Of a stretch of DNA of 59,751 nucleotides, positions 2,278 to 24,059 are shown in pieces (position 1 is the stretch's first letter; every line of letters begins with the position of its first letter). Under the pieces are notes generated by a model. The model ran no database searches, was not told the DNA's origin, and saw only the letters and a program-made list of their open reading frames with translations. The stretch is taken from assembly GCA_002696275.1 (NCBI GenBank), contig NZRO01000039.1, positions 8,923-68,673 of the forward strand, in the 5' to 3' direction. The DNA is from Flavobacteriales bacterium (GTDB lineage: Bacteria > Bacteroidota > Bacteroidia > Flavobacteriales > BACL11). Made by a program: the position numbers and the translations under genes.

Positions 2278-3879
2278 TTATTCTATAATAATTTTTTTTT
2301 CAACTGTTCCGTCATCATAAATATAAAAAAGAGGAATATTTGCACTTTTTTTAACCTCTCTTCCTAAAAAATCTTTGATTTTAATTTGTTTTTTATTGAA
2401 TTTTGAACCTTCAAATCCTAATGGATTAATCATTGGAAGGACAAAGTCAACAACTACAGGGAAATGATCAGAAGCCTCTTTAGTGTCATTCCAAATTAAA
2501 TTATTCTGTAATAATAAAGAAGGACTCATATGCTCTGTTGATATAATAAATGATTTATCAGATGACATAACACTATTAGTAAAAAAGATGAAATCTAATC
2601 TTCCTGGAGGAAAATCTCCAACTGAAGGATTACTCTTATCCCATGTATATGCAATATTTTGCTCATTAAAATAACAAATTTGATCTTTCAGAGAAGTATT
2701 ATTCCAATCAGGAAAACCTCCACTTCCAAATGTAATAGTATCAGAAATTGTACCATTTAAAATAGTGTAATACTGCTCTGAATATCCAACTAAATTCATA
2801 TCTCCAGAAAATGAAATCGGTGTGTTGATTGGTAAATCTATAACGCCGCCTACTGATTTAGCATCATGTATAAATTGAATTAAAGCATCAAAATTTTCCT
2901 GCCTCCCCTGATTATTACTACAACATGGAGGATGACCATTTAGTATTAAAATATCTGTAGAATAAATACTATCGGGTAAATCTATTAATTCTGCATCAAT
3001 CCTATCAGCGACCTGCCAGGATTGTAATGATGGGTATTTGGATATTGTAAGATTACCTGAAATCATATCAGGAAATATATAAGGGTAACTTATAGGAACC
3101 GTGTTTAAGAAGTTAAGAACATCATTATAGCTTGTATTTCCACATTCCTGGTAGGTTACAATATCAGGATTAACACTTGTCAGTATCTTTCTATGCTTGT
3201 CAACACGACTATTGTTAATTAACCCATTACTCCAAACATTATAGGTCATAAGGCGTAAATTTCTTGGATTATTTTTAGAAAAATCAATAGGCGTTGTAGA
3301 TACTGATGAACAATTGTCAAAAATATATGTAAATTTATCACCATTGTCAGGCATAAAATCATTACCAATTTTTTCTCTTATAGAAATACATATAGTATCT
3401 GACAATAAAGTTCTATTTATAGCAATCTCAAATTCATCCGAACTGTATGTAGGAAGTGGAATAACATCTAAATCATAAAAAGAAAGGGTGTCAACGAAAT
3501 TAGGATCAGAATCGTCAAATATAAATTTATCATAAAAATTAATACCATATTCAGACCCAATATTATTTACATAAAAACCCGTGGATACATTGTTGTCAGC
3601 ATCGATATTAATCATCATTTCCGCGGGATTATAAAACTGTTCTGTTAGGTCAATTTCAGTATTACAACTAATCTTAATAAATAAATAATCATTATCGTTA
3701 CAGACACTAAAATCTAATAATTCTATGCCTTGAGAATCTGTAGAATCATCTACATAAGTATTAAGATTAAAATGAGTATTCCAGTCATTAAAAAAACCAT
3801 CTATCTTAATAATATTTTGTGAAGAAACATCAAATACAAATAACAATAAAATACAAGAAATATATATTACTTTTTTCAT
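2278..3879 (-). CDS. Secreted endonuclease/exonuclease/phosphatase (EEP) family protein with N-terminal accessory domain and short T9SS-like C-terminal tail
   Basis: Signal peptide; EEP motifs MTYNV, YQEC, GDMN, RLDFIF, SDHFPV; tail DFLGRE...PLFYIYDDGTVEKKIIIE. Confidence 0.8.
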   Translation of the reverse strand: MKKVIYISCILLLFVFDVSSQNIIKIDGFFNDWNTHFNLNTYVDDSTDSQGIELLDFSVCNDNDYLFIKISCNTEIDLTEQFYNPAEMMINIDADNNVSTGFYVNNIGSEYGINFYDKFIFDDSDPNFVDTLSFYDLDVIPLPTYSSDEFEIAINRTLLSDTICISIREKIGNDFMPDNGDKFTYIFDNCSSVSTTPIDFSKNNPRNLRLMTYNVWSNGLINNSRVDKHRKILTSVNPDIVTYQECGNTSYNDVLNFLNTVPISYPYIFPDMISGNLTISKYPSLQSWQVADRIDAELIDLPDSIYSTDILILNGHPPCCSNNQGRQENFDALIQFIHDAKSVGGVIDLPINTPISFSGDMNLVGYSEQYYTILNGTISDTITFGSGGFPDWNNTSLKDQICYFNEQNIAYTWDKSNPSVGDFPPGRLDFIFFTNSVMSSDKSFIISTEHMSPSLLLQNNLIWNDTKEASDHFPVVVDFVLPMINPLGFEGSKFNKKQIKIKDFLGREVKKSANIPLFYIYDDGTVEKKIIIE

Positions 3880-3992: not shown

Positions 3993-4015
3993 TTATTTTT
4001 ATTTATTCTAAATAT
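3993..4015. promoter_or_regulatory. Putative Fur-like operator (TTATTTTTATTTATTCTAAATAT)
   Basis: 22/23 identical to the box at 19785..19807 in the iron-uptake promoter region. Confidence 0.45.
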
Positions 4016-4064: not shown

Positions 4065-4072
4065 TATGTTTG
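4065..4072 (+). promoter_or_regulatory. Bacteroidota -7 promoter element (TATGTTTG)
   Basis: TAnnTTTG match 25 bp upstream of the ATG at 4098. Confidence 0.5.
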
Positions 4073-4097: not shown

Positions 4098-4307
4098 ATG
4101 AACAAAGAATTATACAACATGCTTTTAAAATCAGCAGAAGCTGATAAAGCAAAAGCCTTACTATCATTAGAACTTTTAGGAAATAAATCTGTAGGTATTG
4201 GAGATCACTCAACAGAAGATTTCTATAAAAATGCGGAAGAAGCTCTTAGCATGCTAGTGGATGCAGACGATAGAATCAAAGCTCTCAATTCGTATTTCAA
4301 CAAGTAA
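4098..4307 (+). CDS. Small hypothetical protein (69 aa, two predicted helices around a VGIGDHST loop)
   Basis: Clean ORF with A-rich leader and own -7 element; not a shadow of any other gene. Confidence 0.75.
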   Translation: MNKELYNMLLKSAEADKAKALLSLELLGNKSVGIGDHSTEDFYKNAEEALSMLVDADDRIKALNSYFNK

Positions 4308-4341
4308 AATTACAAGTTATATAATCTATTCTTCTGAATAG

Positions 4342-15011: not shown

Positions 15012-17426
15012 CTAATAGATGTACTGTAAATTTATAAAATAGTTTATAGGAGGAGATGGTATGATACCAGGACCAGGATAGCCTGTTGCTCTTCTATTAT
15101 AATAGTGACAATTAAGTAGATTATTTATTCCGCACTCAAATATATATTTTGAAAAACCATACCTCAAATTTAAATCTAAAATATAATAAGATGGAATACT
15201 ACCAATTACACCACTAAGGTTTGATTCTACAGCATTTGTAGCATCAGTAAAATGATCTGACAAATAGGTAAACTGAATATTTGAGGAAAAATTTTTATAT
15301 CCAAAAACTAGTCCAGTTTTTAAATTTATAGAAGGGATAAATTCAACCTTGTTTCCTATTATTGATAATTCTTCTGAATTTGTATACCTAGAATCAATAA
15401 ATGATGAATTTATATAATAGTTTAATTTATAACTTCCCTCAAAAAAAGATTTTAGATTAAAATTAATTAAAGATTCTATCCCGTAAATTAACGCAGTACC
15501 AACATTATCTCTAACACTTTTTACATTTCCATCAGTTGTTATCCTTTGAACAAAGCCTATTCTATCATTATACCTTAAAAGAAAAGATGTAATATCAAAA
15601 GAAATAGTTCTATTGTGTTTACCTCTGAATCCCAAATCAAAAGTCTGCCCATACTCATCTGAAATATTAGGATCAATCATAAACGCTGGATTCACAACAC
15701 TTATATCTGCAAAAGTAACAGATCTATAATTTTGAGAAAGATTAGAATACAATTCATTATCTTTAATTTTATACACAAGCCCAACACCTGATAAAAGGAA
15801 ACTTCTCTTGTTATATTTGTTCTCATATATAGTTGTATCTTTAATGGGATTTGCAGCGGCATCTAAATTTATTTCTTTATAGTATCCTTCTGCTTTAGTA
15901 TTAATAAACTCATATCGAAATCCAGGAGTTATTGAAAAATTATCAGATAAATAAAAAATATTTTCTCCAAAAACGGAAATATTAAAATTTGGGTGAGTAT
16001 AACTTGACTGGTTGTTATAATAAGGAAATTCCTCATTATAAAAATTGAAATCTGCATCGAAATTGTTTGATCCTGGTCCTTGACTATTAGAGTTATTAGA
16101 TTTGTATAATTTTGTTCCTATTAATGAAACACATTTGATTTCTTTGATATTTGATTTATGAATTAATTTGTATTCATATCCAAAATTTTTAAATATTCCT
16201 TTAATTAAATCTCTTTCTAAAAATGGATCAATCTGATCAACTCTATTTGTTCTAAATCCTAATGCATTTCGTTCTGCATTTAAACCAAACAATGATAAAG
16301 TATAATAAGTATTTTCAGAAATTTGATGAGAAATCTTTGTATTATATAGAAACCAATTTACATAAAACCAATTTCTAGATCTGTTACTTTGAAACGGATT
16401 TTCTAGAAACATTTCATCACTTAGTCCGCCACCCTGCTGAGCGAGATACTCTAAAAATGTTATATCGCTTGAAATATTTACTTTTTCACTTATTTTCCAT
16501 TTTAGATTAATAAAGAAATTTCTAGAATTAAATTCTGAAAAATCCCTAAATCCATTGCCTTTTTTAATATTTACAAAAGAATAAAATGCAAAATTCTTTT
16601 TTGAGGCAGAAGCTGAAGTGAAATTAGTAAATAAGTGATTACTTCCAACAGTATTTCTAGTTTCAAACTTAAAAGGAGAATTTAATTCGGCTGTCTTTAA
16701 TTTAAAGTTTATTAGCCCTCCAAACTGTGTGCCATATTGTAAAGAAGCAGCCCCCCTGACTATCTCTATTCGCTCGATAGCTTCTGCTGGAGGTGTGTAG
16801 TAACTCTCTGGATATCCCAAAACATCAGCACTGATATCATAACTATTTTGTCTTGTAATAAAATTAGAAGTCCTATTTGGATCAAGACCTCTCCCCCCAA
16901 CATTTAATTGTAATCCAGCGTCATCATTTTGATATATATTTAAACCAGAAACTTGACTAAATATCTGTCTACTAGTATTTAAAGACAAGTTTGAATATAA
17001 TTCATCTATCAAAATTACTTCTGATTTCTTCCCGGCAAAAATAGAGGTTTCCTCTATGTCTTTTAGTTTGATTGTACTAAAAAGTTCTTTTCTTTGAGAT
17101 TTTATCTCTACTTGACTTAATTCAACAGATAGTGGTCTAAGTTCAATTCTTATTTTATTATCACTATCTGATAAAATTTCCGTTTGAGAGTAGTATTCCT
17201 CAGCATGAACTATAATACAAATCTTGTTTTTAATTGAGTTAAAACTAAATTCTCCTTTACTGTTTGTTTTATCAAGAATCTTAAAATCTTCATCTATAAT
17301 CTCAATATTTGAAAGTGGTAACTTTGTATCTTTATTTATAATTTTACCTGAAAATGTAAAGTTTTGAGATAAAAGAAAACTTGATTTGAATAAACAAATT
17401 AATAAAAAAAACTGCTTAGAACTCAC
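15012..17426 (-). CDS. TonB-dependent receptor (FecA-like) with N-terminal carboxypeptidase-regulatory-like domain
   Basis: Plug motifs GGRGLDPNR, YYTPPAEAIERIEIVRGAASLQYG; barrel; terminal INNL...YIY. Confidence 0.88.
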   Translation of the reverse strand: MSSKQFFLLICLFKSSFLLSQNFTFSGKIINKDTKLPLSNIEIIDEDFKILDKTNSKGEFSFNSIKNKICIIVHAEEYYSQTEILSDSDNKIRIELRPLSVELSQVEIKSQRKELFSTIKLKDIEETSIFAGKKSEVILIDELYSNLSLNTSRQIFSQVSGLNIYQNDDAGLQLNVGGRGLDPNRTSNFITRQNSYDISADVLGYPESYYTPPAEAIERIEIVRGAASLQYGTQFGGLINFKLKTAELNSPFKFETRNTVGSNHLFTNFTSASASKKNFAFYSFVNIKKGNGFRDFSEFNSRNFFINLKWKISEKVNISSDITFLEYLAQQGGGLSDEMFLENPFQSNRSRNWFYVNWFLYNTKISHQISENTYYTLSLFGLNAERNALGFRTNRVDQIDPFLERDLIKGIFKNFGYEYKLIHKSNIKEIKCVSLIGTKLYKSNNSNSQGPGSNNFDADFNFYNEEFPYYNNQSSYTHPNFNISVFGENIFYLSDNFSITPGFRYEFINTKAEGYYKEINLDAAANPIKDTTIYENKYNKRSFLLSGVGLVYKIKDNELYSNLSQNYRSVTFADISVVNPAFMIDPNISDEYGQTFDLGFRGKHNRTISFDITSFLLRYNDRIGFVQRITTDGNVKSVRDNVGTALIYGIESLINFNLKSFFEGSYKLNYYINSSFIDSRYTNSEELSIIGNKVEFIPSINLKTGLVFGYKNFSSNIQFTYLSDHFTDATNAVESNLSGVIGSIPSYYILDLNLRYGFSKYIFECGINNLLNCHYYNRRATGYPGPGIIPSPPINYFINLQYIY

Positions 17427-17440
17427 TATTTCTTGTTAAT

Positions 17441-18547
17441 CTAATCACCATCGGCATCTACATAATCAACTTTAATTCTCAAAGCTTGTAACATCTGAAT
17501 TTTCATCAAAGGGACCGCTTCTTGAATAGCATCAAAAGTGGCTAACATTTTCATATTTTCCGACTGAATCTGATTTACAAAATTATTATCTAGCATTTCC
17601 AATTGTTGTTTTGAATTTTCAAATTTTGAAATAATATCGTCAGTCAACACAGAGTTTGTAACATCTAAAAAATCAAGATAAGTCACAAGTGAACTTCCTG
17701 TTTGTAATGAGGAAAATGACTCACCAGTAAATAACTTACGAGTAGACTCTAAAGCATGTAATGCTAAAGTCTTAGAAAAATACTGACTATAAAAACCTTC
17801 AACATTTTGAGGCAAACTAGAGCTAGTAGAATATACTCCAGCTGGTATTCCTATTTTGTTTGCTCTAAATCCTTTTTCATAATAATAAATAAAATCATTA
17901 GTTAACATATTCAAACTAGAGGTCGCTGTATTTCCGTTACTATTAACGAAACTTAATTTTTCATCGTTCCAATAATTTAAGACTGATTGAGTATTGATAA
18001 CTAATTCATCAATCAAAGCTTTTGAATATTCTAAATATAAATTATCTGTATTATATAAATTTAAAATATTTGATGTATCAGAGGCAATACCATATAACAT
18101 ATAGTCCAACGCGGGAAATCCTTGAGAAGAATAATTTAGATAATTATCTGCAGAAAAATCATACATTTGGTTTTGTATGTTCATATCAATCATTGTAGTG
18201 TTACATGGGTAAGTATTAGATCTCAAATTATAAGAAATTTGTTCAGCTTTTCCTATGTTATATAATTCTACATATTGCCATGCAATATATGATTTTCTCC
18301 ATGCTGATTTTACTGTATTAAAATTTTCTTCATTAACAGAATTATAAAAATTATTGTAAGCTGTCTGTAAACTTTCAAGATTTGTTAATAAATTTACATG
18401 TGCCGGAATAATAATATTATCAACTGTATTTAACAAAACACTTTCTCTAAATGATTTATCCTCAACACTTTGTTGATTATTACTTTCTGTTGTACAAGAG
18501 GCAAATACAATTAATAAGAATAAATAAATACCTGTTTTTTTCATCAT
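17441..18547 (-). CDS. Imelysin family lipoprotein
   Basis: Lipobox FASC; AWRKSYIAWQ, GFPALDY, KIGIPAG, DADGD C-terminus. Confidence 0.85.
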   Translation of the reverse strand: MMKKTGIYLFLLIVFASCTTESNNQQSVEDKSFRESVLLNTVDNIIIPAHVNLLTNLESLQTAYNNFYNSVNEENFNTVKSAWRKSYIAWQYVELYNIGKAEQISYNLRSNTYPCNTTMIDMNIQNQMYDFSADNYLNYSSQGFPALDYMLYGIASDTSNILNLYNTDNLYLEYSKALIDELVINTQSVLNYWNDEKLSFVNSNGNTATSSLNMLTNDFIYYYEKGFRANKIGIPAGVYSTSSSLPQNVEGFYSQYFSKTLALHALESTRKLFTGESFSSLQTGSSLVTYLDFLDVTNSVLTDDIISKFENSKQQLEMLDNNFVNQIQSENMKMLATFDAIQEAVPLMKIQMLQALRIKVDYVDADGD

Positions 18548-18557
18548 CTTTCTTTTA

Positions 18558-18589
18558 AAAGAAAAGACAGCATATGCTGTCTTTTCTTT
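18558..18589 (-). terminator. Perfect 32-bp palindrome: intra-operonic hairpin or terminator between DUF4856 and imelysin genes
   Basis: AAAGAAAAGACAGCATATGCTGTCTTTTCTTT equals its own reverse complement. Confidence 0.7.
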
Positions 18590-18607
18590 GTGTATTAATA
18601 ATTAATT

Positions 18608-19714
18608 TTAAAGTCCACAAACAGCCTTAATATCAGCAGCCATTTGATTTAATTCTGCGTCAGTTCTGTCCCAAAAACCATCACCAGAATTAAGTTGATC
18701 CAACATAATATTCACTTCATCATGAGTATAATATGGATTACCATCAGCATCTACAGTAAATTGTAAAGACATGATAAATCCGTATCCTTCAGATAAAGAA
18801 TGGAAATATGCAGCTGAAAGATCAGTTTGTAAGGCTGCATCTTCTAAATAGTATGCAGCTCTTATAGCGACAACTTTTGACAAAGTTTCTTTAATTATTT
18901 GAGCTTGTTCATCTCTTACTTCAGAACAATTTTCAACAATAGCTTGTCTTCCTTCAATAAAAGCATTGTATACAGTTGCTCTATGATCTTCATATTTAGT
19001 TAAATATTTTCCTAATAGATTGTCTCCTGAAATTTCTTCAGAGGTAACTCCGTCAGCTCCTTGAATTCCATAGATGTAACCATATCCTTCGTCCCAGTGA
19101 TGTTCCATATCAGTGTAAGGATCTCTTGTAACATTATCTACAACATCACCAATCTTTGCCTCACTTAAATATCCGTTAGCTACTTGATCCAGACATAGAG
19201 CTCCTATAAGACCCTTTGCGAAGAATTGATCTAATTCCTGTCCTTTAGCATTTAACTCTCTATTATCAACCCAACCAGGAATACCGGGAGCAGCTTGAGT
19301 CCCAGCAGCCATGGCAGGGGCAACATTTGAAGTATAGTCAACTAACCAACTATCAAACATAGCCTGAATATTAGCTTTTACAGTTGCTGTTTGATATCCA
19401 GCAGTTTTACTTCTAACTTGCTTACCACTAGCATCCAATGTTGCATCAGCAAAACCTGTCCCATCAGCAAACATCTCATTCAAAATCGCAACATCAGTTG
19501 TTGTTTCGTCTTCCAATTTTCCTAAAATCTCATCTACCATTTTCAATCTAGCTGTTTGACCACCAAAAGAAACTGTATTTGTACCATCATGTGAAAACAC
19601 ATAATTTTCTGGAGATGAAACACTACACTCAACAATATCATTATCTGTACCACATGAACTAAATATTACAATAGTTGATAATAAGGCAGCTTTAATAAAA
19701 TTTAATTTTTTCAT
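18608..19714 (-). CDS. DUF4856 family surface lipoprotein
   Basis: Lipobox FSSC; VSFGGQTARL, ELDQFFAKGLIGA, MEHHWDEGYGY, HSLSEGYGF; first gene of the imelysin/TBDR operon. Confidence 0.82.
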   Translation of the reverse strand: MKKLNFIKAALLSTIVIFSSCGTDNDIVECSVSSPENYVFSHDGTNTVSFGGQTARLKMVDEILGKLEDETTTDVAILNEMFADGTGFADATLDASGKQVRSKTAGYQTATVKANIQAMFDSWLVDYTSNVAPAMAAGTQAAPGIPGWVDNRELNAKGQELDQFFAKGLIGALCLDQVANGYLSEAKIGDVVDNVTRDPYTDMEHHWDEGYGYIYGIQGADGVTSEEISGDNLLGKYLTKYEDHRATVYNAFIEGRQAIVENCSEVRDEQAQIIKETLSKVVAIRAAYYLEDAALQTDLSAAYFHSLSEGYGFIMSLQFTVDADGNPYYTHDEVNIMLDQLNSGDGFWDRTDAELNQMAADIKAVCGL

Positions 19715-19753
19715 TTTTTTTTTTTAAATTAATAATTCAGCAAAGATTGTATA

Positions 19754-19776
19754 TTATTTATAATAAATCCAAATAA
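19754..19776. promoter_or_regulatory. Fur-like box 1 (TTATTT-N11-AAATAA)
   Basis: TTATTTATAATAAATCCAAATAA upstream of the DUF4856-imelysin-TBDR operon. Confidence 0.6.
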
Positions 19777-19784
19777 AAACAATA

Positions 19785-19807
19785 TTATTTTTATTTATTC
19801 TAAATAA
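19785..19807. promoter_or_regulatory. Fur-like box 2 (TTATTT-N11-AAATAA)
   Basis: TTATTTTTATTTATTCTAAATAA, just upstream of the TATTTTTG -7 element (19818-19825) of the DoxX gene. Confidence 0.6.
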
Positions 19808-19850
19808 AAATTATTTATATTTTTGTAACATCAAAAAATTATAAACAATT

Positions 19851-20303
19851 ATGAAAAAATTATTACATACAGTATTTACTATAATACTTGCTATTTTCTT
19901 TATATATAAAGGAGTGGAGAAAATGCCTATAAAGACTAGTGAAATTTCAACTGAAGAGATAGAACAGTTGTCTAAAGGAGATTATCTGAATTCTGAAACA
20001 GGAGTTAAACCAATAGGATATAAAATCACAATGAATACTATGAGAACTTCTGGATTTATTCAAATGATTGGAATCTTTCAAATTTTAGCTGGAGTCTTAA
20101 TGATAATTCCCATAACAAGAATTATTGGAACATTTCTGCTTTTGCCAATTATATTTAACATTTTTATGATGCATGTATTCTTTGACAACAGAATAGATGA
20201 AAATATATTATGTGGAACCTTATTATTTATAAATGTACTTTTATGTTTCTTTTATTATAGTAACATAAAAACAATCATTATACACACCAAGTTAACAAAT
20301 TAA
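19851..20303 (+). CDS. DoxX family membrane protein
   Basis: Four TM segments; KG..K, GIFQILAG.L, LLLPIIFNIF..H pattern. Confidence 0.7.
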   Translation: MKKLLHTVFTIILAIFFIYKGVEKMPIKTSEISTEEIEQLSKGDYLNSETGVKPIGYKITMNTMRTSGFIQMIGIFQILAGVLMIIPITRIIGTFLLLPIIFNIFMMHVFFDNRIDENILCGTLLFINVLLCFFYYSNIKTIIIHTKLTN

Positions 20304-20315
20304 ATATATTGAATT

Positions 20316-21296
20316 TTGATTTATTTTGAGGAAATAAAACTGTTAGTTCTAGAAGCTATTAACCTATCAACATCTTATTTTATTAATCCAGAGAAAAGAA
20401 TCTATATCCTTTATTTATTTACATCTTTAATTTTATCCTTTTACGTGTATAATAGAGGTAAATATAAAAAAGAATCATTTTTGAAATTTATATTTAATAA
20501 AAAGGTTTGGTTGAGCAAATCATCAATAATTGATTATCTCTTTTTCTTTTTTAATTCCCTGATAAAGATTTTATTTATAGCACCATACATTTACTTTAGT
20601 TTTGTACTTGCGTTCTATACTACAGACACATTGGAACAAAGCTTTGGTTTTTACCAAAATAACTCCTCACAGATTGTAATTATTATTAGTTATACTGTTT
20701 GCCTTACTATTGTTAATGATTTTTTCAGTTATATTTTACACTATTTGATGCATCATAATAGAATTTTATGGGAATTTCATAAAATTCATCATGCGGCTAC
20801 AACCTTAAATCCAATTACACAATATAGAATTCATCCAATAGAATTAGTAATTAACAATTTGAGAAGTATATTTGTTTTTGGTATTGTAACAGGAATATTT
20901 GATTATTTTTCATCTCAAGAAATTAACAAACTATTATTTCTTGGAGTTAATTTTTTTAGCTTCTTATTTTATTTATTTGGAGCAAATCTGAGACATTCTC
21001 ATATAAAATTGTCATACCCTAAATTTTTTGAAAGAATATTTATTAGTCCCTACCAACATCAAATACACCATAGTATTAACAAAAAACACTACAATAAAAA
21101 TATGGGTTCTAAACTAGCAATTTGGGATTGGATGTTTGGAACTCTAGTATTTTCAGGAAAAATGAAAAGTATTAGATATGGTATAAAAGATACTCAACAT
21201 AATTATCAAGGTTTTTGGTATAATATTTTCAAACCATTTATTGAGTCAAAAAATATAATTTTTTCATATTTTAATTCATCGAAGAAGAATCAGTAA
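20316..21296 (+). CDS. Sterol desaturase / fatty acid hydroxylase family membrane di-iron protein
   Basis: His boxes HYLMH, HKIHH, RHSH, HQIHH; KNMG..LAIWDWMFGT. TTG start. Confidence 0.88.
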   Translation: MIYFEEIKLLVLEAINLSTSYFINPEKRIYILYLFTSLILSFYVYNRGKYKKESFLKFIFNKKVWLSKSSIIDYLFFFFNSLIKILFIAPYIYFSFVLAFYTTDTLEQSFGFYQNNSSQIVIIISYTVCLTIVNDFFSYILHYLMHHNRILWEFHKIHHAATTLNPITQYRIHPIELVINNLRSIFVFGIVTGIFDYFSSQEINKLLFLGVNFFSFLFYLFGANLRHSHIKLSYPKFFERIFISPYQHQIHHSINKKHYNKNMGSKLAIWDWMFGTLVFSGKMKSIRYGIKDTQHNYQGFWYNIFKPFIESKNIIFSYFNSSKKNQ

Positions 21297-21333: not shown

Positions 21334-22104
21334 ATGATTAATTTCAAAAAAATTGATGGAGTAGGGAAAATCACCCTAAATAGACCTGAAAAGTTCAATT
21401 CCTTCGTTAGAGAAATGGCACTAAAGTTACAAGAAACATTAGATTCATGTAAGAAGGATGATGAAATACGATCTGTAATGATTACCGCAAGTGGGAAAGC
21501 ATTTTGTGCAGGGCAAGATTTAAAAGAAGCTACAGATCCTAATGGAAGAAATATATCAACAATTATTCAGGAACATTACAATCCTATTATTTTAAAAATA
21601 AGAAATCTTAATAAACCTGTAATTGCTGCTGTTAATGGCGTTGCTGCGGGCGCAGGAGCTAGTCTTGCTCTTTGTTGTGATATTATTGTCGCTTCAGAAA
21701 ACGCATCATTTATACAAGCATTTAGTAAAATTGGACTTGTTCCTGATAGTGGATCAACTTATTTCTTACCTAGAATAGTAGGAATTCAAAGAGCAGCGGC
21801 AGTTATGATGACAGCTGAACCAATATCTGCTCATGAAGCAGAAAAAATGGGAATGATTTATAAAGCTTATCCTCAAGATGTTTTTGAGAAGGAGAGTTGG
21901 CACCTCGTTTCAAAACTAGCAAAAATGCCAACTAAAGCTCTTGCTCTAACCAAAGAATTATTAAATTCATCTATAGAAAATAGCCTGAAAGAACAGTTGA
22001 ACTTAGAAGATAAGTATCAATCTATAGCAGCTAATACTGAAGATTTTAATGAAGGAGTGAAAGCCTTTTTAGAAAAAAGAAAAGCAAATTTTAAAGGAAA
22101 GTAA
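21334..22104 (+). CDS. paaG: Enoyl-CoA hydratase/isomerase, PaaG-like
   Basis: TLNRPEKFNSF, AFCAGQDL, EHYNP, AVNGVAAGAGA, AFSKIGLVPDSG; adjacent to a PaaJ-type thiolase. Confidence 0.78.
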   Translation: MINFKKIDGVGKITLNRPEKFNSFVREMALKLQETLDSCKKDDEIRSVMITASGKAFCAGQDLKEATDPNGRNISTIIQEHYNPIILKIRNLNKPVIAAVNGVAAGAGASLALCCDIIVASENASFIQAFSKIGLVPDSGSTYFLPRIVGIQRAAAVMMTAEPISAHEAEKMGMIYKAYPQDVFEKESWHLVSKLAKMPTKALALTKELLNSSIENSLKEQLNLEDKYQSIAANTEDFNEGVKAFLEKRKANFKGK

Positions 22105-23303
22105 TGACATATATTATTGACGCTATCAGAACTCCAATTGGAAACTTTGGAGGAACACTCAAAGATGTGAGAACAGATGATTTAGGAGCTATTCCAATAA
22201 GAGAACTTATAAAAAGAACAGGAATAAATACAGAGAGAATTGATGATGTAATTCTTGGATGCGCAAACCAAGCAGGAGAAGACAATAGAAATATTGCAAG
22301 AATGTCTCTTCTATTAGCAGGATTACCATTTACAGTGCCTGGAGAAACTATAAATAGATTATGTTCATCTGGAATGTCCTCTGTAATCCATGCACACAGA
22401 GCTATTTGTACAGGTGATGGTGATATTTTCATTGCTGGAGGTGTAGAAAACATGACAAGAGGCCCCTGGGTCATCTCAAAGGTTTCTAAAGCCTTCGGAA
22501 GAGATGCACAAATGTATGATTCTTCTTTTGGATGGAGGTTTGTAAATCCAAAAATGAAAGAGTTATATGGAGTGGACGGAATGGGGAATACTGCAGAGAA
22601 CTTAGCAGAAAAATATAACATCTCTAGAAAAGATCAAGATCTATTTGCGTACTATTCTCAAATGAAAGCTTCTAAAGCTCAATCAGACGGTAGATTTGAA
22701 GAAGAAATTGTATCAGTAGAAATTCCTCAAAGAAAGAAAGAACCTATCATTTTTAGTAAAGATGAATTTATAAAATCTAACACCTCATTAGAAATCTTAT
22801 CAAAACTTCGAACAGCATTTAAAAAAGAAGGAGGTAGTGTTACTGCTGGTAACGCATCAGGATTAAATGATGGCGCTGCCGCTATGCTTTTGGCATCAGA
22901 AAAAGGATTAAAAGAAAATAATCTTAAACCAATTGCAAGAATAGTAAGCTCCGCGGTAGTTGGTGTAGAACCTAGAATAATGGGAATAGGACCTGTAAAA
23001 GCTTCTAATAAAGCTCTTGAAAAAGCAGGTTTAACCATGAATGATATCGATATTATTGAATTAAATGAAGCCTTTGCAGCACAAGCTCTTGCTTGTCTCA
23101 GAGAGTGGGGGTTAAACGATGATGATCCTAGAATAAATCCTAATGGAGGAGCCATTGCACTTGGTCATCCCTTAGGAGTTAGTGGGACAAGAATCTTACA
23201 AACAGCCGCAATTGAATTAAAGAAACAAAATAAGAAATTTGCATTGGTAACAATGTGTATTGGAGTTGGACAAGGATACGCAACAATTATTGAAAGAGTA
23301 TAA
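22104..23303 (+). CDS. paaJ: 3-oxoadipyl-CoA thiolase (PaaJ/PcaF)
   Basis: GCANQAGEDNRNIARM, NRLCSSG, GHPLG, MCIGVGQG. Confidence 0.82.
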   Translation: MTYIIDAIRTPIGNFGGTLKDVRTDDLGAIPIRELIKRTGINTERIDDVILGCANQAGEDNRNIARMSLLLAGLPFTVPGETINRLCSSGMSSVIHAHRAICTGDGDIFIAGGVENMTRGPWVISKVSKAFGRDAQMYDSSFGWRFVNPKMKELYGVDGMGNTAENLAEKYNISRKDQDLFAYYSQMKASKAQSDGRFEEEIVSVEIPQRKKEPIIFSKDEFIKSNTSLEILSKLRTAFKKEGGSVTAGNASGLNDGAAAMLLASEKGLKENNLKPIARIVSSAVVGVEPRIMGIGPVKASNKALEKAGLTMNDIDIIELNEAFAAQALACLREWGLNDDDPRINPNGGAIALGHPLGVSGTRILQTAAIELKKQNKKFALVTMCIGVGQGYATIIERV

Positions 23304-24059
23304 ATGAAAGAATATGTAAAACTTACAAAAGAAAATGGAATTGGAATAATTGAATTTTTTCATCCTCAATCCAATTCTCTACCATCAAACATTTTATCTT
23401 TAATAGCAGAAACTATAACAAAATCAGGAAATGATAAAGATATTAAAGTAATAATTCTAAAAAGTGGTGGAGATAGAGTTTTTTGCGCAGGTGCTTCTTT
23501 TGATGAATTAGTTTCAATTAAAAGTGAAGAAGAAGGAGAAAAATTCTTTTCAGGATTTGCAAATGTTATTAATGCAGCAAGAAAATGTCCAAAATTTATA
23601 ATTGGTAGAGTACAAGGAAAAACTGTTGGTGGAGGTGTAGGAATGGCCTCCGCAACTGATTATTGTTTTGCTACCAGATTTGCATCTGCAAAATTATCAG
23701 AGTTAGCCATAGGAATAGGACCTTTCGTGGTAGGTCCCGCTGTAGAAAGAAAAATTGGAACCTCAGCATTTTCTGCAATGACAATAAATGCAACAAGATG
23801 GTTTGATGCAAAATGGGCTAGAGAAAAAGGATTGTATTCAGAAGTATTTGATTCAACAGAGGAAATGGATAAGGAAATTAATATCCTAGCAACAATTCTA
23901 TCAAATTCTAACCCAGAAGCAATGAAAGGATTAAAGAAAGTGATGTGGGAAGGAACAGAACATTGGGATCAACTATTAAAAGAAAGAGCTATTAGTAGTG
24001 GGACCTTAGTTCTTTCTGACTTTACAAGAAATGCGATAAATAAATTTAAACAAAAATAG
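23304..24059 (+). CDS. Enoyl-CoA hydratase/isomerase family protein
   Basis: FCAGASF, VQGKTVGGGVG, SELAIGIGPF crotonase motifs. Confidence 0.85.
   Translation: MKEYVKLTKENGIGIIEFFHPQSNSLPSNILSLIAETITKSGNDKDIKVIILKSGGDRVFCAGASFDELVSIKSEEEGEKFFSGFANVINAARKCPKFIIGRVQGKTVGGGVGMASATDYCFATRFASAKLSELAIGIGPFVVGPAVERKIGTSAFSAMTINATRWFDAKWAREKGLYSEVFDSTEEMDKEINILATILSNSNPEAMKGLKKVMWEGTEHWDQLLKERAISSGTLVLSDFTRNAINKFKQK

Follow-up and report, generated by a model that had tools for sequence, protein, structure and literature searches.

Why should a membrane-bound di-iron oxygenase be encoded back to back with genes for iron uptake? The question is raised by a five-gene divergent locus at positions 15012-21296 of a 59,751-nucleotide stretch of DNA from a Flavobacteriales bacterium, the whole of which is here called the window (contig C16:8923-68673). 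The genome amounts to 1.79 Mb in 52 contigs (30% G+C, 94% complete), and its closest public relatives are uncultured marine Flavobacteriales and Cryomorphaceae-like metagenome-assembled genomes (MAGs), including a 95%-identical Tara Oceans bin. One strand of the locus carries an operon for a DUF4856 lipoprotein, an imelysin-like lipoprotein, and a TonB-dependent outer-membrane receptor (TBDR); the other carries a small membrane protein, p150, and the oxygenase, FAH, of the FA_hydroxylase superfamily. The answer argued for here, with a probability of roughly two in three, is that this is an iron-starvation locus under shared divergent Fur-type control, and that FAH is a dedicated enzyme of the module, standing in the place that HTTM proteins hold elsewhere, and no bystander lipid enzyme.

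The features of the locus, in window coordinates, are these:

15012-17426, minus strand: TBDR, 804 amino acids, last gene of the operon
17441-18547, minus strand: imelysin-like lipoprotein, 368 amino acids; PF09375 at 2.3e-28, 100 bits against a cut-off of 23.5
18608-19714, minus strand: DUF4856 lipoprotein, 368 amino acids, first gene of the operon; PF16148 at 4.4e-80
19741-19748, minus strand: probable -7 element of the DUF4856 operon, AATCTTTG, one mismatch to TAnnTTTG
19754-19776, no strand: Box 1, putative Fur-type operator TTATTTATAATAAATCCAAATAA, with core ATTTATAATAAATCCAAAT at 19756-19774
19785-19807, no strand: Box 2, putative Fur-type operator TTATTTTTATTTATTCTAAATAA, with core ATTTTTATTTATTCTAAAT at 19787-19805
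19818-19825, plus strand: -7 element of p150-FAH, TATTTTTG, a perfect TAnnTTTG and the only plus-strand match in the spacer by regular-expression search
19851-20303, plus strand: p150, polytopic membrane protein, DoxX/MauE-clan-like, 150 amino acids
20316-21296, plus strand: FAH, integral-membrane di-iron oxygenase of the FA_hydroxylase superfamily, 326 amino acids, TTG start; PF04116 at 1.8e-22

Linkage of FAH to imelysin modules

Overall, 81 genomes and 159 loci were sampled, with an order-level sample of 81 Flavobacteriales genomes (evenly drawn, at least 90% complete), an FAH-centred sample of 80 loci, and an FAH tree of 75 rows. Conservation of the gene adjacency had been set beforehand, in the initial annotation of the locus, as a test of its own proposal. 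FAH neighbours an imelysin gene in 54 of the 80 loci, across two phyla, and about 33-38 of the FAH loci hold the full DUF4856-imelysin-TBDR block. At least four arrangements occur: FAH is divergent from the block, lies between imelysin and TBDR, stands upstream on the same strand, or follows directly downstream of TBDR. In many genomes FAH is part of the uptake operon or the next gene after it, the genes overlapping or standing 43-69 bp apart.

The second phylum is Campylobacterota. In Arcobacter, Aliarcobacter, Poseidonibacter, and related genera (L064-L076, L081), FAH belongs to an operon with the order imelysin, di-haem oxidoreductase (DHOR, PF06537), imelysin, FAH, cytochrome c peroxidase. 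The operon is translationally coupled, because its junctions overlap or nearly touch (-35, -1 or -4, +3, and -1 bp). The palindrome GATAAY-N-ATTATC lies just upstream of the operon, as the only copy in ~16 kb, in 9 of the 11 operon-bearing loci; none was found in 984 kb of the other loci. This box has the classical Fur-box core, tGATAATtATTATCa, and precedes the start of the first imelysin gene by some 65-100 bp, so a different Fur motif in a different phylum appears to precede the same FAH-containing operon.

In a maximum-likelihood FAH tree, imelysin context is found on both sides of the deepest split. FAH genes without any imelysin nearby make up 23 of the 75 tree rows, and the unlinked genes form a few derived groups, chiefly Crocinitomix.

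Several further arrangements were seen among these loci. In the one family that holds G056 (C3:7982-8923) and G027 (L164, L165), FAH is unlinked from the DUF4856-imelysin-TBDR block; the G056 gene has an in-frame TAA, and the G027 cassette keeps two boxes while its distant FAH gene has none. A Haem_bd gene (PF14376, 2.1e-51) recurs in FAH-type cassettes (L020, L022, L026, L034, L039, L043, L045), and Flavicella loci have a second imelysin-DHOR-imelysin module adjoining FAH.

Mutual exclusion of FAH and HTTM

The usual order in DUF4856-centred loci is DUF4856-imelysin-X-TBDR, where X is an HTTM protein with the lumenal domain of vitamin K-dependent gamma-carboxylase (VKGC; PF05090 at 9e-71, PF22777 at 8e-51). 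FAH occupies this exact slot, between imelysin and TBDR, in five loci (L010, L014, L023, L029, L049). Fifty loci hold all three core genes: HTTM is found in 40, FAH in 8, both in 2, and neither in none. Seen from the other side, HTTM is also present in only 2 of 33 FAH-type clusters.

The order-level sample is partitioned in the same way. DUF4856 occurs in 18 of the 81 genomes, 13 with HTTM only and 5 with FAH only (G000, G023, G027, G056, G062), and in no case with both or neither. HTTM is adjacent to the cassette in all but one of the 13 HTTM-type genomes. No strong FAH orthologue was found in any of the 63 Flavobacteriales genomes without DUF4856, and a search of the window's own whole genome for HTTM found none. 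The exchange of FAH and HTTM seems to have happened repeatedly, because three families contain genomes of both the FAH type and the HTTM type. The cassette is patchy even among close relatives, and a same-genus genome (G040) is without DUF4856, FAH, and HTTM alike.

A putative shared operator in the divergent spacer

The 136-bp spacer (19715-19850) holds two TTATTT-N11-AAATAA boxes with centres 31 bp apart, as the initial annotation had reported. Three copies of the motif occur in the window, where shuffled sequence would give 0.26, and the whole genome has 13. Both boxes match ATTTAGAATTATTCTAAAT at 16 of 19 positions, Box 1 on the minus strand (15 of 19 on the plus strand). This consensus, already given in the initial annotation, is exactly the putative Fur box published for Riemerella anatipestifer RA-YM, where Fur shifted promoter fragments containing it (PMC5609570). 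Box 1 lies ~42 bp from the DUF4856 start codon and Box 2 ~46 bp from that of p150, both within ~100 bp of a start codon, as are the sites in Table 5 of that study (PMC5609570). The genome encodes two Fur-family genes of its own.

The claim that each box stands beside the -7 element of one promoter also bears out. The perfect TATTTTTG element lies 12 bp past the Box 2 core and 25 bp upstream of the p150 ATG, and the imperfect AATCTTTG element lies 7 bp from the Box 1 core; orthologous spacers have a perfect TAnnTTTG at the latter position. Each box overlaps the -33 region of one promoter. Because the boxes stand 7-12 bp from their -7 elements and cover the -33 regions, the layout resembles that of a repressor site. 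A scan for sigma-70-type promoters and terminators was uninformative (58 promoter-like sites against 56.5 expected).

Direct transfer of the Riemerella consensus to define the iron regulon of this genome was tried and set aside; it gave mixed results, and a matrix was rebuilt from orthologous sites. For the chance test, the matrix was built only from sites in other genomes, because the genome's own intergenic DNA is 78% A+T. By this matrix Box 1 scores 16.6 bits, the third-best intergenic site of the genome, and Box 2 scores 14.6 bits. Across the genome's 82 kb of intergenic DNA, 6 sites reach 14 bits or more; a first-order Markov model predicts 0.30, and no more than 2 arose in any of its 200 runs. 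Only in the window spacer do two such sites share one intergenic region, an outcome that the 200 composition-matched simulations never produced.

Conservation of the boxes

Orthologous DUF4856/FAH spacers carry palindromes of the ATTTAGAcTTAaTCTAAAT type that are stronger versions of the window's boxes, for example ATTTAGACTTAATCTAAAT in L007, and every orthologous divergent spacer examined has one or two boxes. Two copies are found in L004 (31 bp apart and laid out as in the window), L006, and L009. Genomes G062 and G023, from a different family, share the window's exact layout, with FAH-p150 divergent from DUF4856-imelysin-TBDR and spacer boxes of 23.7 and 17.5 bits, respectively. The phasing of the two boxes by three helical turns, to which the initial annotation had drawn attention, is not conserved: the spacing of double boxes varies among relatives (27, 28, or 31 bp), and several of them have just one box.

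Among the 80 FAH loci, cluster genes have ATTTAGA-N5-TCTAAAT (up to 2 mismatches) in 51 of their 159 promoter regions, versus 18 of 293 for other genes. Several of these 18 are the promoter regions of genes right beside the cluster, among them a LuxR-type response regulator just upstream of FAH. Perfect Bacteroidota-type boxes also stand ahead of FAH genes with no imelysin nearby (Aureivirga, L017, L030). Judged by sequence, the boxes appear to be an operator of the Fur-box type published for Flavobacteriales, conserved among relatives and putative in this organism.

The LuxR-type regulator gene lies directly upstream of FAH in Vicingaceae and related loci (L039, L041, L045, L077, L035), and it frequently comes with its own perfect ATTTAGA-N5-TCTAAAT box.

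The oxygenase and its small partner

The initial annotation had called FAH a di-iron desaturase and p150 a DoxX protein. The His-box enzyme stands, as a di-iron oxygenase of the FA_hydroxylase family in place of a desaturase. FAH scores 80.6 bits to PF04116 against a cut-off of 31; its best specific NCBIfam match is OlsE (NF052566, 1.3e-13), at 51 bits against a cut-off of 475, so it is no OlsE. Eight His residues (H142, H146, H155, H158, H159, H248, H251, H252) are invariant in 30 FAH orthologues from Bacteroidota and Campylobacterota. These are all eight canonical His of the three His boxes, and the di-iron site is therefore intact. The motifs LWEFHKIHHSA, NPxTQYRxHPxE, GANLRHSH, and ISPxQHQIHHS are strongly conserved, and in the 30-sequence alignment long stretches, LWEFHKIHHSA and QHQIHHS among them, are as invariant as the His residues. 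By hydropathy and a positive-inside count, both His-rich loops fall on the K/R-rich side of the membrane, and the His boxes are presumably cytoplasmic. The AlphaFold model of FAH has a pLDDT of 88.6.

The DoxX label is reasonable for the p150 family and weak for the window protein. DoxX (PF07681 / PF13564) matches five of six p150 family members, with a best E of 3.1e-6, and p150 itself falls below every Pfam cut-off (DoxX_2 at 16.2 bits against 26.3, E = 0.012). Only 12 bp separate p150 from FAH. The two genes adjoin in seven relatives in either order, p150 after FAH in L005, L007, L009, and L011/L084, and before it, as in the window, in the two genomes of another family, G062 and G023.

Downstream of FAH, the genes at 21334-24059 (a paaG-like enoyl-CoA isomerase, a 3-oxoadipyl-CoA thiolase, and a third, crotonase-like gene) were considered as part of the module and rejected, because the neighbourhood is shared only with the 95%-identical MAG L003 and is absent from other relatives. 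A 37-bp gap with no clear -7 element separates FAH from the paaG-like gene.

The outer-membrane operon

DUF4856, imelysin, and TBDR lie in one co-directional block, with gaps of 60 bp (DUF4856-imelysin) and 14 bp (imelysin-TBDR), and so make up the core of the Bacteroidota iron cassette. All three calls of the initial annotation hold, save that the receptor is FecA-like only in a generic sense. The TBDR has barrel (PF00593, 8.5e-25), plug (PF07715), and N-terminal CarboxypepD_reg-like (PF13715) domains. Its best NCBIfam match, FecA (NF041676), reaches 100 bits against an equivalog cut-off of 1100, which points to a generic TonB-dependent receptor and not to a FecA equivalog.

The signal peptide of the imelysin ends in FASC. 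A regular-expression search of the window imelysin for G.H..E, the GxHxxE motif of ICMP/IrpA-type proteins, found no match; the equivalent stretch reads GFPALD. The protein is an IPPA-like variant, matching the GxxxxE group of Xu et al. (2011, PMC3143127), without the catalytic His. Its sole sequence relative in the PDB is 4ecg, a "putative iron-regulated protein A" (E = 8.9e-4).

DUF4856 has a MEHHWDE..GY motif that is invariant in the alignment, and its AlphaFold model is all-helical (pLDDT 90.4). A fold search of the PDB gave no significant match for it, and a sequence search of the PDB gave no relative. The idea that DUF4856 is a cryptic imelysin was rejected, as hhalign of the two alignments paired only the lipoprotein signal peptides. 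A Sir2 gene downstream of TBDR was likewise rejected as a module member; no relative has Sir2 at that place.

Comparison with known systems

The closest published counterpart is in Riemerella. Genes RAYM_09779-09794 of R. anatipestifer are annotated as encoding a TBDR, a vitamin K-dependent gamma-carboxylase, an imelysin lipoprotein, and a hypothetical protein, and their expression goes up when iron is restricted and when fur is mutated (PMC5609570). Iron depletion also raises expression of B739_0094-0097 in strain CH-1, genes that were noted as lying outside the neighbouring ICS locus (PMC5429918). The Riemerella cassette and the window locus appear to share the outer-membrane part, judged by annotation and by the DUF4856-imelysin-HTTM-TBDR order in 40 loci, and to share the operator type. 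The window genome differs in having no HTTM/VKGC protein and a divergent DoxX-like gene with FAH instead. To our knowledge, the Riemerella cassette has never been functionally characterized.

Imelysin operons are Fur-regulated in Pseudomonas and Vibrio, as exemplified by icmP of P. aeruginosa PA4370-PA4373 and by V. cholerae VC1264-VC1266 (Xu et al., 2011, PMC3143127). These operons share with the window locus an imelysin-like lipoprotein, which in them is under Fur control and implicated in iron uptake. The PA4370-4373-type layout, imelysin / di-haem oxidoreductase / imelysin, is also the layout around FAH in Campylobacterota. Unlike the Pseudomonas and Vibrio operons, the window has no DHOR/DUF1111 peroxidase, its imelysin has no GxHxxE His, and it adds DUF4856 and a TBDR. 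Xu et al. mention no FA_hydroxylase member of imelysin operons (Xu et al., 2011, PMC3143127). The literature searched held no paper linking imelysin with a sterol desaturase, a fatty-acid hydroxylase, DUF4856, or HTTM. In that literature the cassette is known and iron-regulated, and the FAH component is undescribed.

Three groups of enzymes invite comparison with FAH. The FA_hydroxylase superfamily (PF04116), which includes sterol C4/C5 oxidases, sphingolipid hydroxylases, alkylglycerol monooxygenase, CrtZ, and OlsE, shares its His boxes and polytopic membrane form, but FAH matches no characterized member and has motifs of its own and an iron-uptake genomic context. The HTTM/VKGC proteins (PF05090 + PF22777) of Bacteroidota cassettes hold the same slot and are mutually exclusive with FAH across genomes. 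VKGC homologues and the FAH family are both O2-using integral membrane enzymes. They are unrelated in fold and chemistry, however, and the VKGC active site is lumenal (the equivalent of periplasmic), whereas the metal site of FAH is predicted to be cytoplasmic. PiuC/YbiX-type Fe(II)/2-oxoglutarate hydroxylases, encoded beside Fur-regulated TonB receptors (fiu-ybiX, piuA-piuC), offer a third parallel. They set a precedent for an iron-dependent oxygenase of unknown role encoded under Fur control next to an iron receptor gene; unlike FAH, they are soluble, belong to a different superfamily, and have no sequence relation to it.

Other boxes in the genome

Strong intergenic boxes of 11.3-19.9 bits also occur outside the window (C14:39570, C2:14611, C2:216693, C8:14123, C2:136868). 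They stand before an alternative complex III multihaem cytochrome operon, in the common spacer between the genes for a 4Fe-4S ferredoxin and 2-oxoglutarate:ferredoxin oxidoreductase, before sdhC, and before ileS together with a small Cys-rich open reading frame (ORF). The proteins behind these boxes were identified by eye from translations. The regulon thus seems to include iron-rich enzymes. Boxes at the iron-rich enzyme operons mostly lie 34-67 bp from the -7 element, versus 7-12 bp at the iron locus; only at the promoter on the ferredoxin side of the ferredoxin/korA spacer does the box directly adjoin the -7 element.

The window itself contains one more box (14.6 bits), at 3993-4015, which agrees with Box 2 at 22 of 23 bp and has the same 19-mer core. 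It is flanked by an EEP-family gene (2278-3879, minus strand) and a 69-amino-acid ORF (4099-4308), and it stands about 51 bp ahead of the ORF's -7 element TATGTTTG (4065-4072), farther from it than the boxes of the iron locus are from theirs.

Alternative explanations

FAH could be co-regulated with the uptake operon and still serve a separate purpose, iron-starvation membrane remodelling, for example by hydroxylating aminolipids, sphingolipids, or lipid A acyl chains. Its superfamily consists of lipid hydroxylases and desaturases, its best specific match is OlsE, its His boxes, like those of lipid-modifying relatives, are predicted to face the cytoplasm, and nearly a third of the tree rows place it away from any imelysin. 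The OlsE score is nevertheless far under its cut-off. A general remodelling enzyme should neither track one cassette nor exclude HTTM, yet FAH is absent from the 63 sampled Flavobacteriales genomes without DUF4856 and present in every sampled DUF4856 genome without HTTM; it also belongs to coupled imelysin operons in Campylobacterota, a phylum with membrane lipids unlike those of Bacteroidota. Membrane remodelling is accordingly judged unlikely, although it is the strongest of the competing accounts. An iron-sparing arrangement is less probable again. Here Box 2 would turn the iron-containing FAH off at low iron, opposite to the uptake operon, and the divergent layout would be mere economy of regulator. 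Fur-family regulators act both ways in some bacteria, and the strong boxes before the alternative complex III, ferredoxin/korAB, and sdhC operons fit such a scheme. In many genomes, however, FAH lies in or directly after the uptake operon and must be co-transcribed with it, and both window boxes share a close -7 geometry that the boxes of iron-rich operons, the ferredoxin side excepted, mostly do not have.

Least credible of all is the view that chance alone produced both boxes, as AT-rich palindromes of a genome with 30% G+C, and that the neighbourhood is an accident. The A+T content of the intergenic DNA, the one or two G/C in each box, and the fact that the best match to ATTTAGAATTATTCTAAAT in the genome precedes ileS would suit this view. 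It is contradicted by the simulations and the excess of high-scoring sites, by the retention of sites in orthologous spacers of relatives at 40-65% protein identity, and by synteny in two phyla.

Several observations weigh against an iron-starvation module with FAH as its dedicated enzyme, or against parts of that proposal. The Fur assignment draws by analogy on the electrophoretic mobility shift assay of a single species, made with promoter fragments. The two top-scoring sites of the genome stand before ileS and the alternative complex III operon, with further ones ahead of ferredoxin/korAB and sdhC. Boxes before iron-rich enzyme operons are in keeping with an iron regulator, but they show that it may act with either sign, and a box alone is no proof of induction at low iron. 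The initial annotation had reasoned that repressing an iron-consuming enzyme with iron would be odd; for the same reason, that argument is not decisive. Many boxes of relatives stand farther out, 26-27 bp before the -7 element, a less clearly repressor-like position, and a search for RNA sequencing runs containing window sequence found none. Crocinitomix (11 loci) and G027 have FAH genes that are unlinked and lack a box. Searches of the PDB gave no substrate lead: Foldseek with the FAH model returned nothing below E = 2.8, and phmmer with FAH returned spurious KtrA matches only. Since the active sites of FAH and VKGC probably face opposite sides of the membrane, there is no obvious one-for-one equivalence between them. 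As for a role of p150 in the module, the gene is confined to a few marine Flavobacteriales lineages.

A probable mechanism

If the locus is an iron-starvation module with FAH as its dedicated enzyme, Fur would occupy both boxes when iron is available and shut off the DUF4856-imelysin-TBDR operon and the p150-FAH pair, and both units would be transcribed when iron is scarce. The two lipoproteins and the receptor would form an outer-membrane capture and import arm for an iron species. FAH, as a member of a subfamily dedicated to imelysin-based uptake and facing the cytoplasm, would use O2 and two electrons to oxygenate a membrane-embedded molecule, lipid or quinone-like, that the module needs, and most relatives would meet the same need with a VKGC homologue. 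The initial annotation had suggested that both divergent genes may form the inner-membrane arm of an undescribed uptake system. Synteny, operator, and the HTTM partition argue for the membership of FAH; by sequence the DoxX-like partner is weak, and it is found in few lineages only. p150 might be a lineage-specific accessory, possibly one that delivers electrons, an idea that draws on the presumed function of the DoxX family. That it does so as a quinol-linked electron supply is a guess by analogy.

A broader proposal can be made only tentatively and is doubtful as it stands. The DUF4856-imelysin-TBDR cassette may need an O2-dependent membrane enzyme as such, and the two unrelated fillers of that position may act on one membrane-soluble molecule (the menaquinone pool, for instance, or a ligand anchored to lipid) so that imported iron is released, reduced, or passed on. 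If FAH and VKGC are equivalent, the opposite orientation of their sites implies that a shared substrate should be membrane-soluble.

Significance for iron acquisition

Imelysin-based uptake is widespread in marine and host-associated bacteria, and neither how it moves iron nor what its membrane enzymes do is understood. The strict either/or pattern of HTTM and FAH provides a concrete genetic handle on a possible shared substrate. The published Riemerella Fur-box motif is extended to uncultured marine Flavobacteriales, and the likely regulon members in this streamlined ocean genome, iron-rich respiratory enzymes among them, bear on how such bacteria cope with the scarcity of iron in seawater. 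If the broader proposal is true, it would add a new and widespread step to bacterial iron acquisition and give bacterial VKGC homologues and the FAH subfamily their first physiological role.

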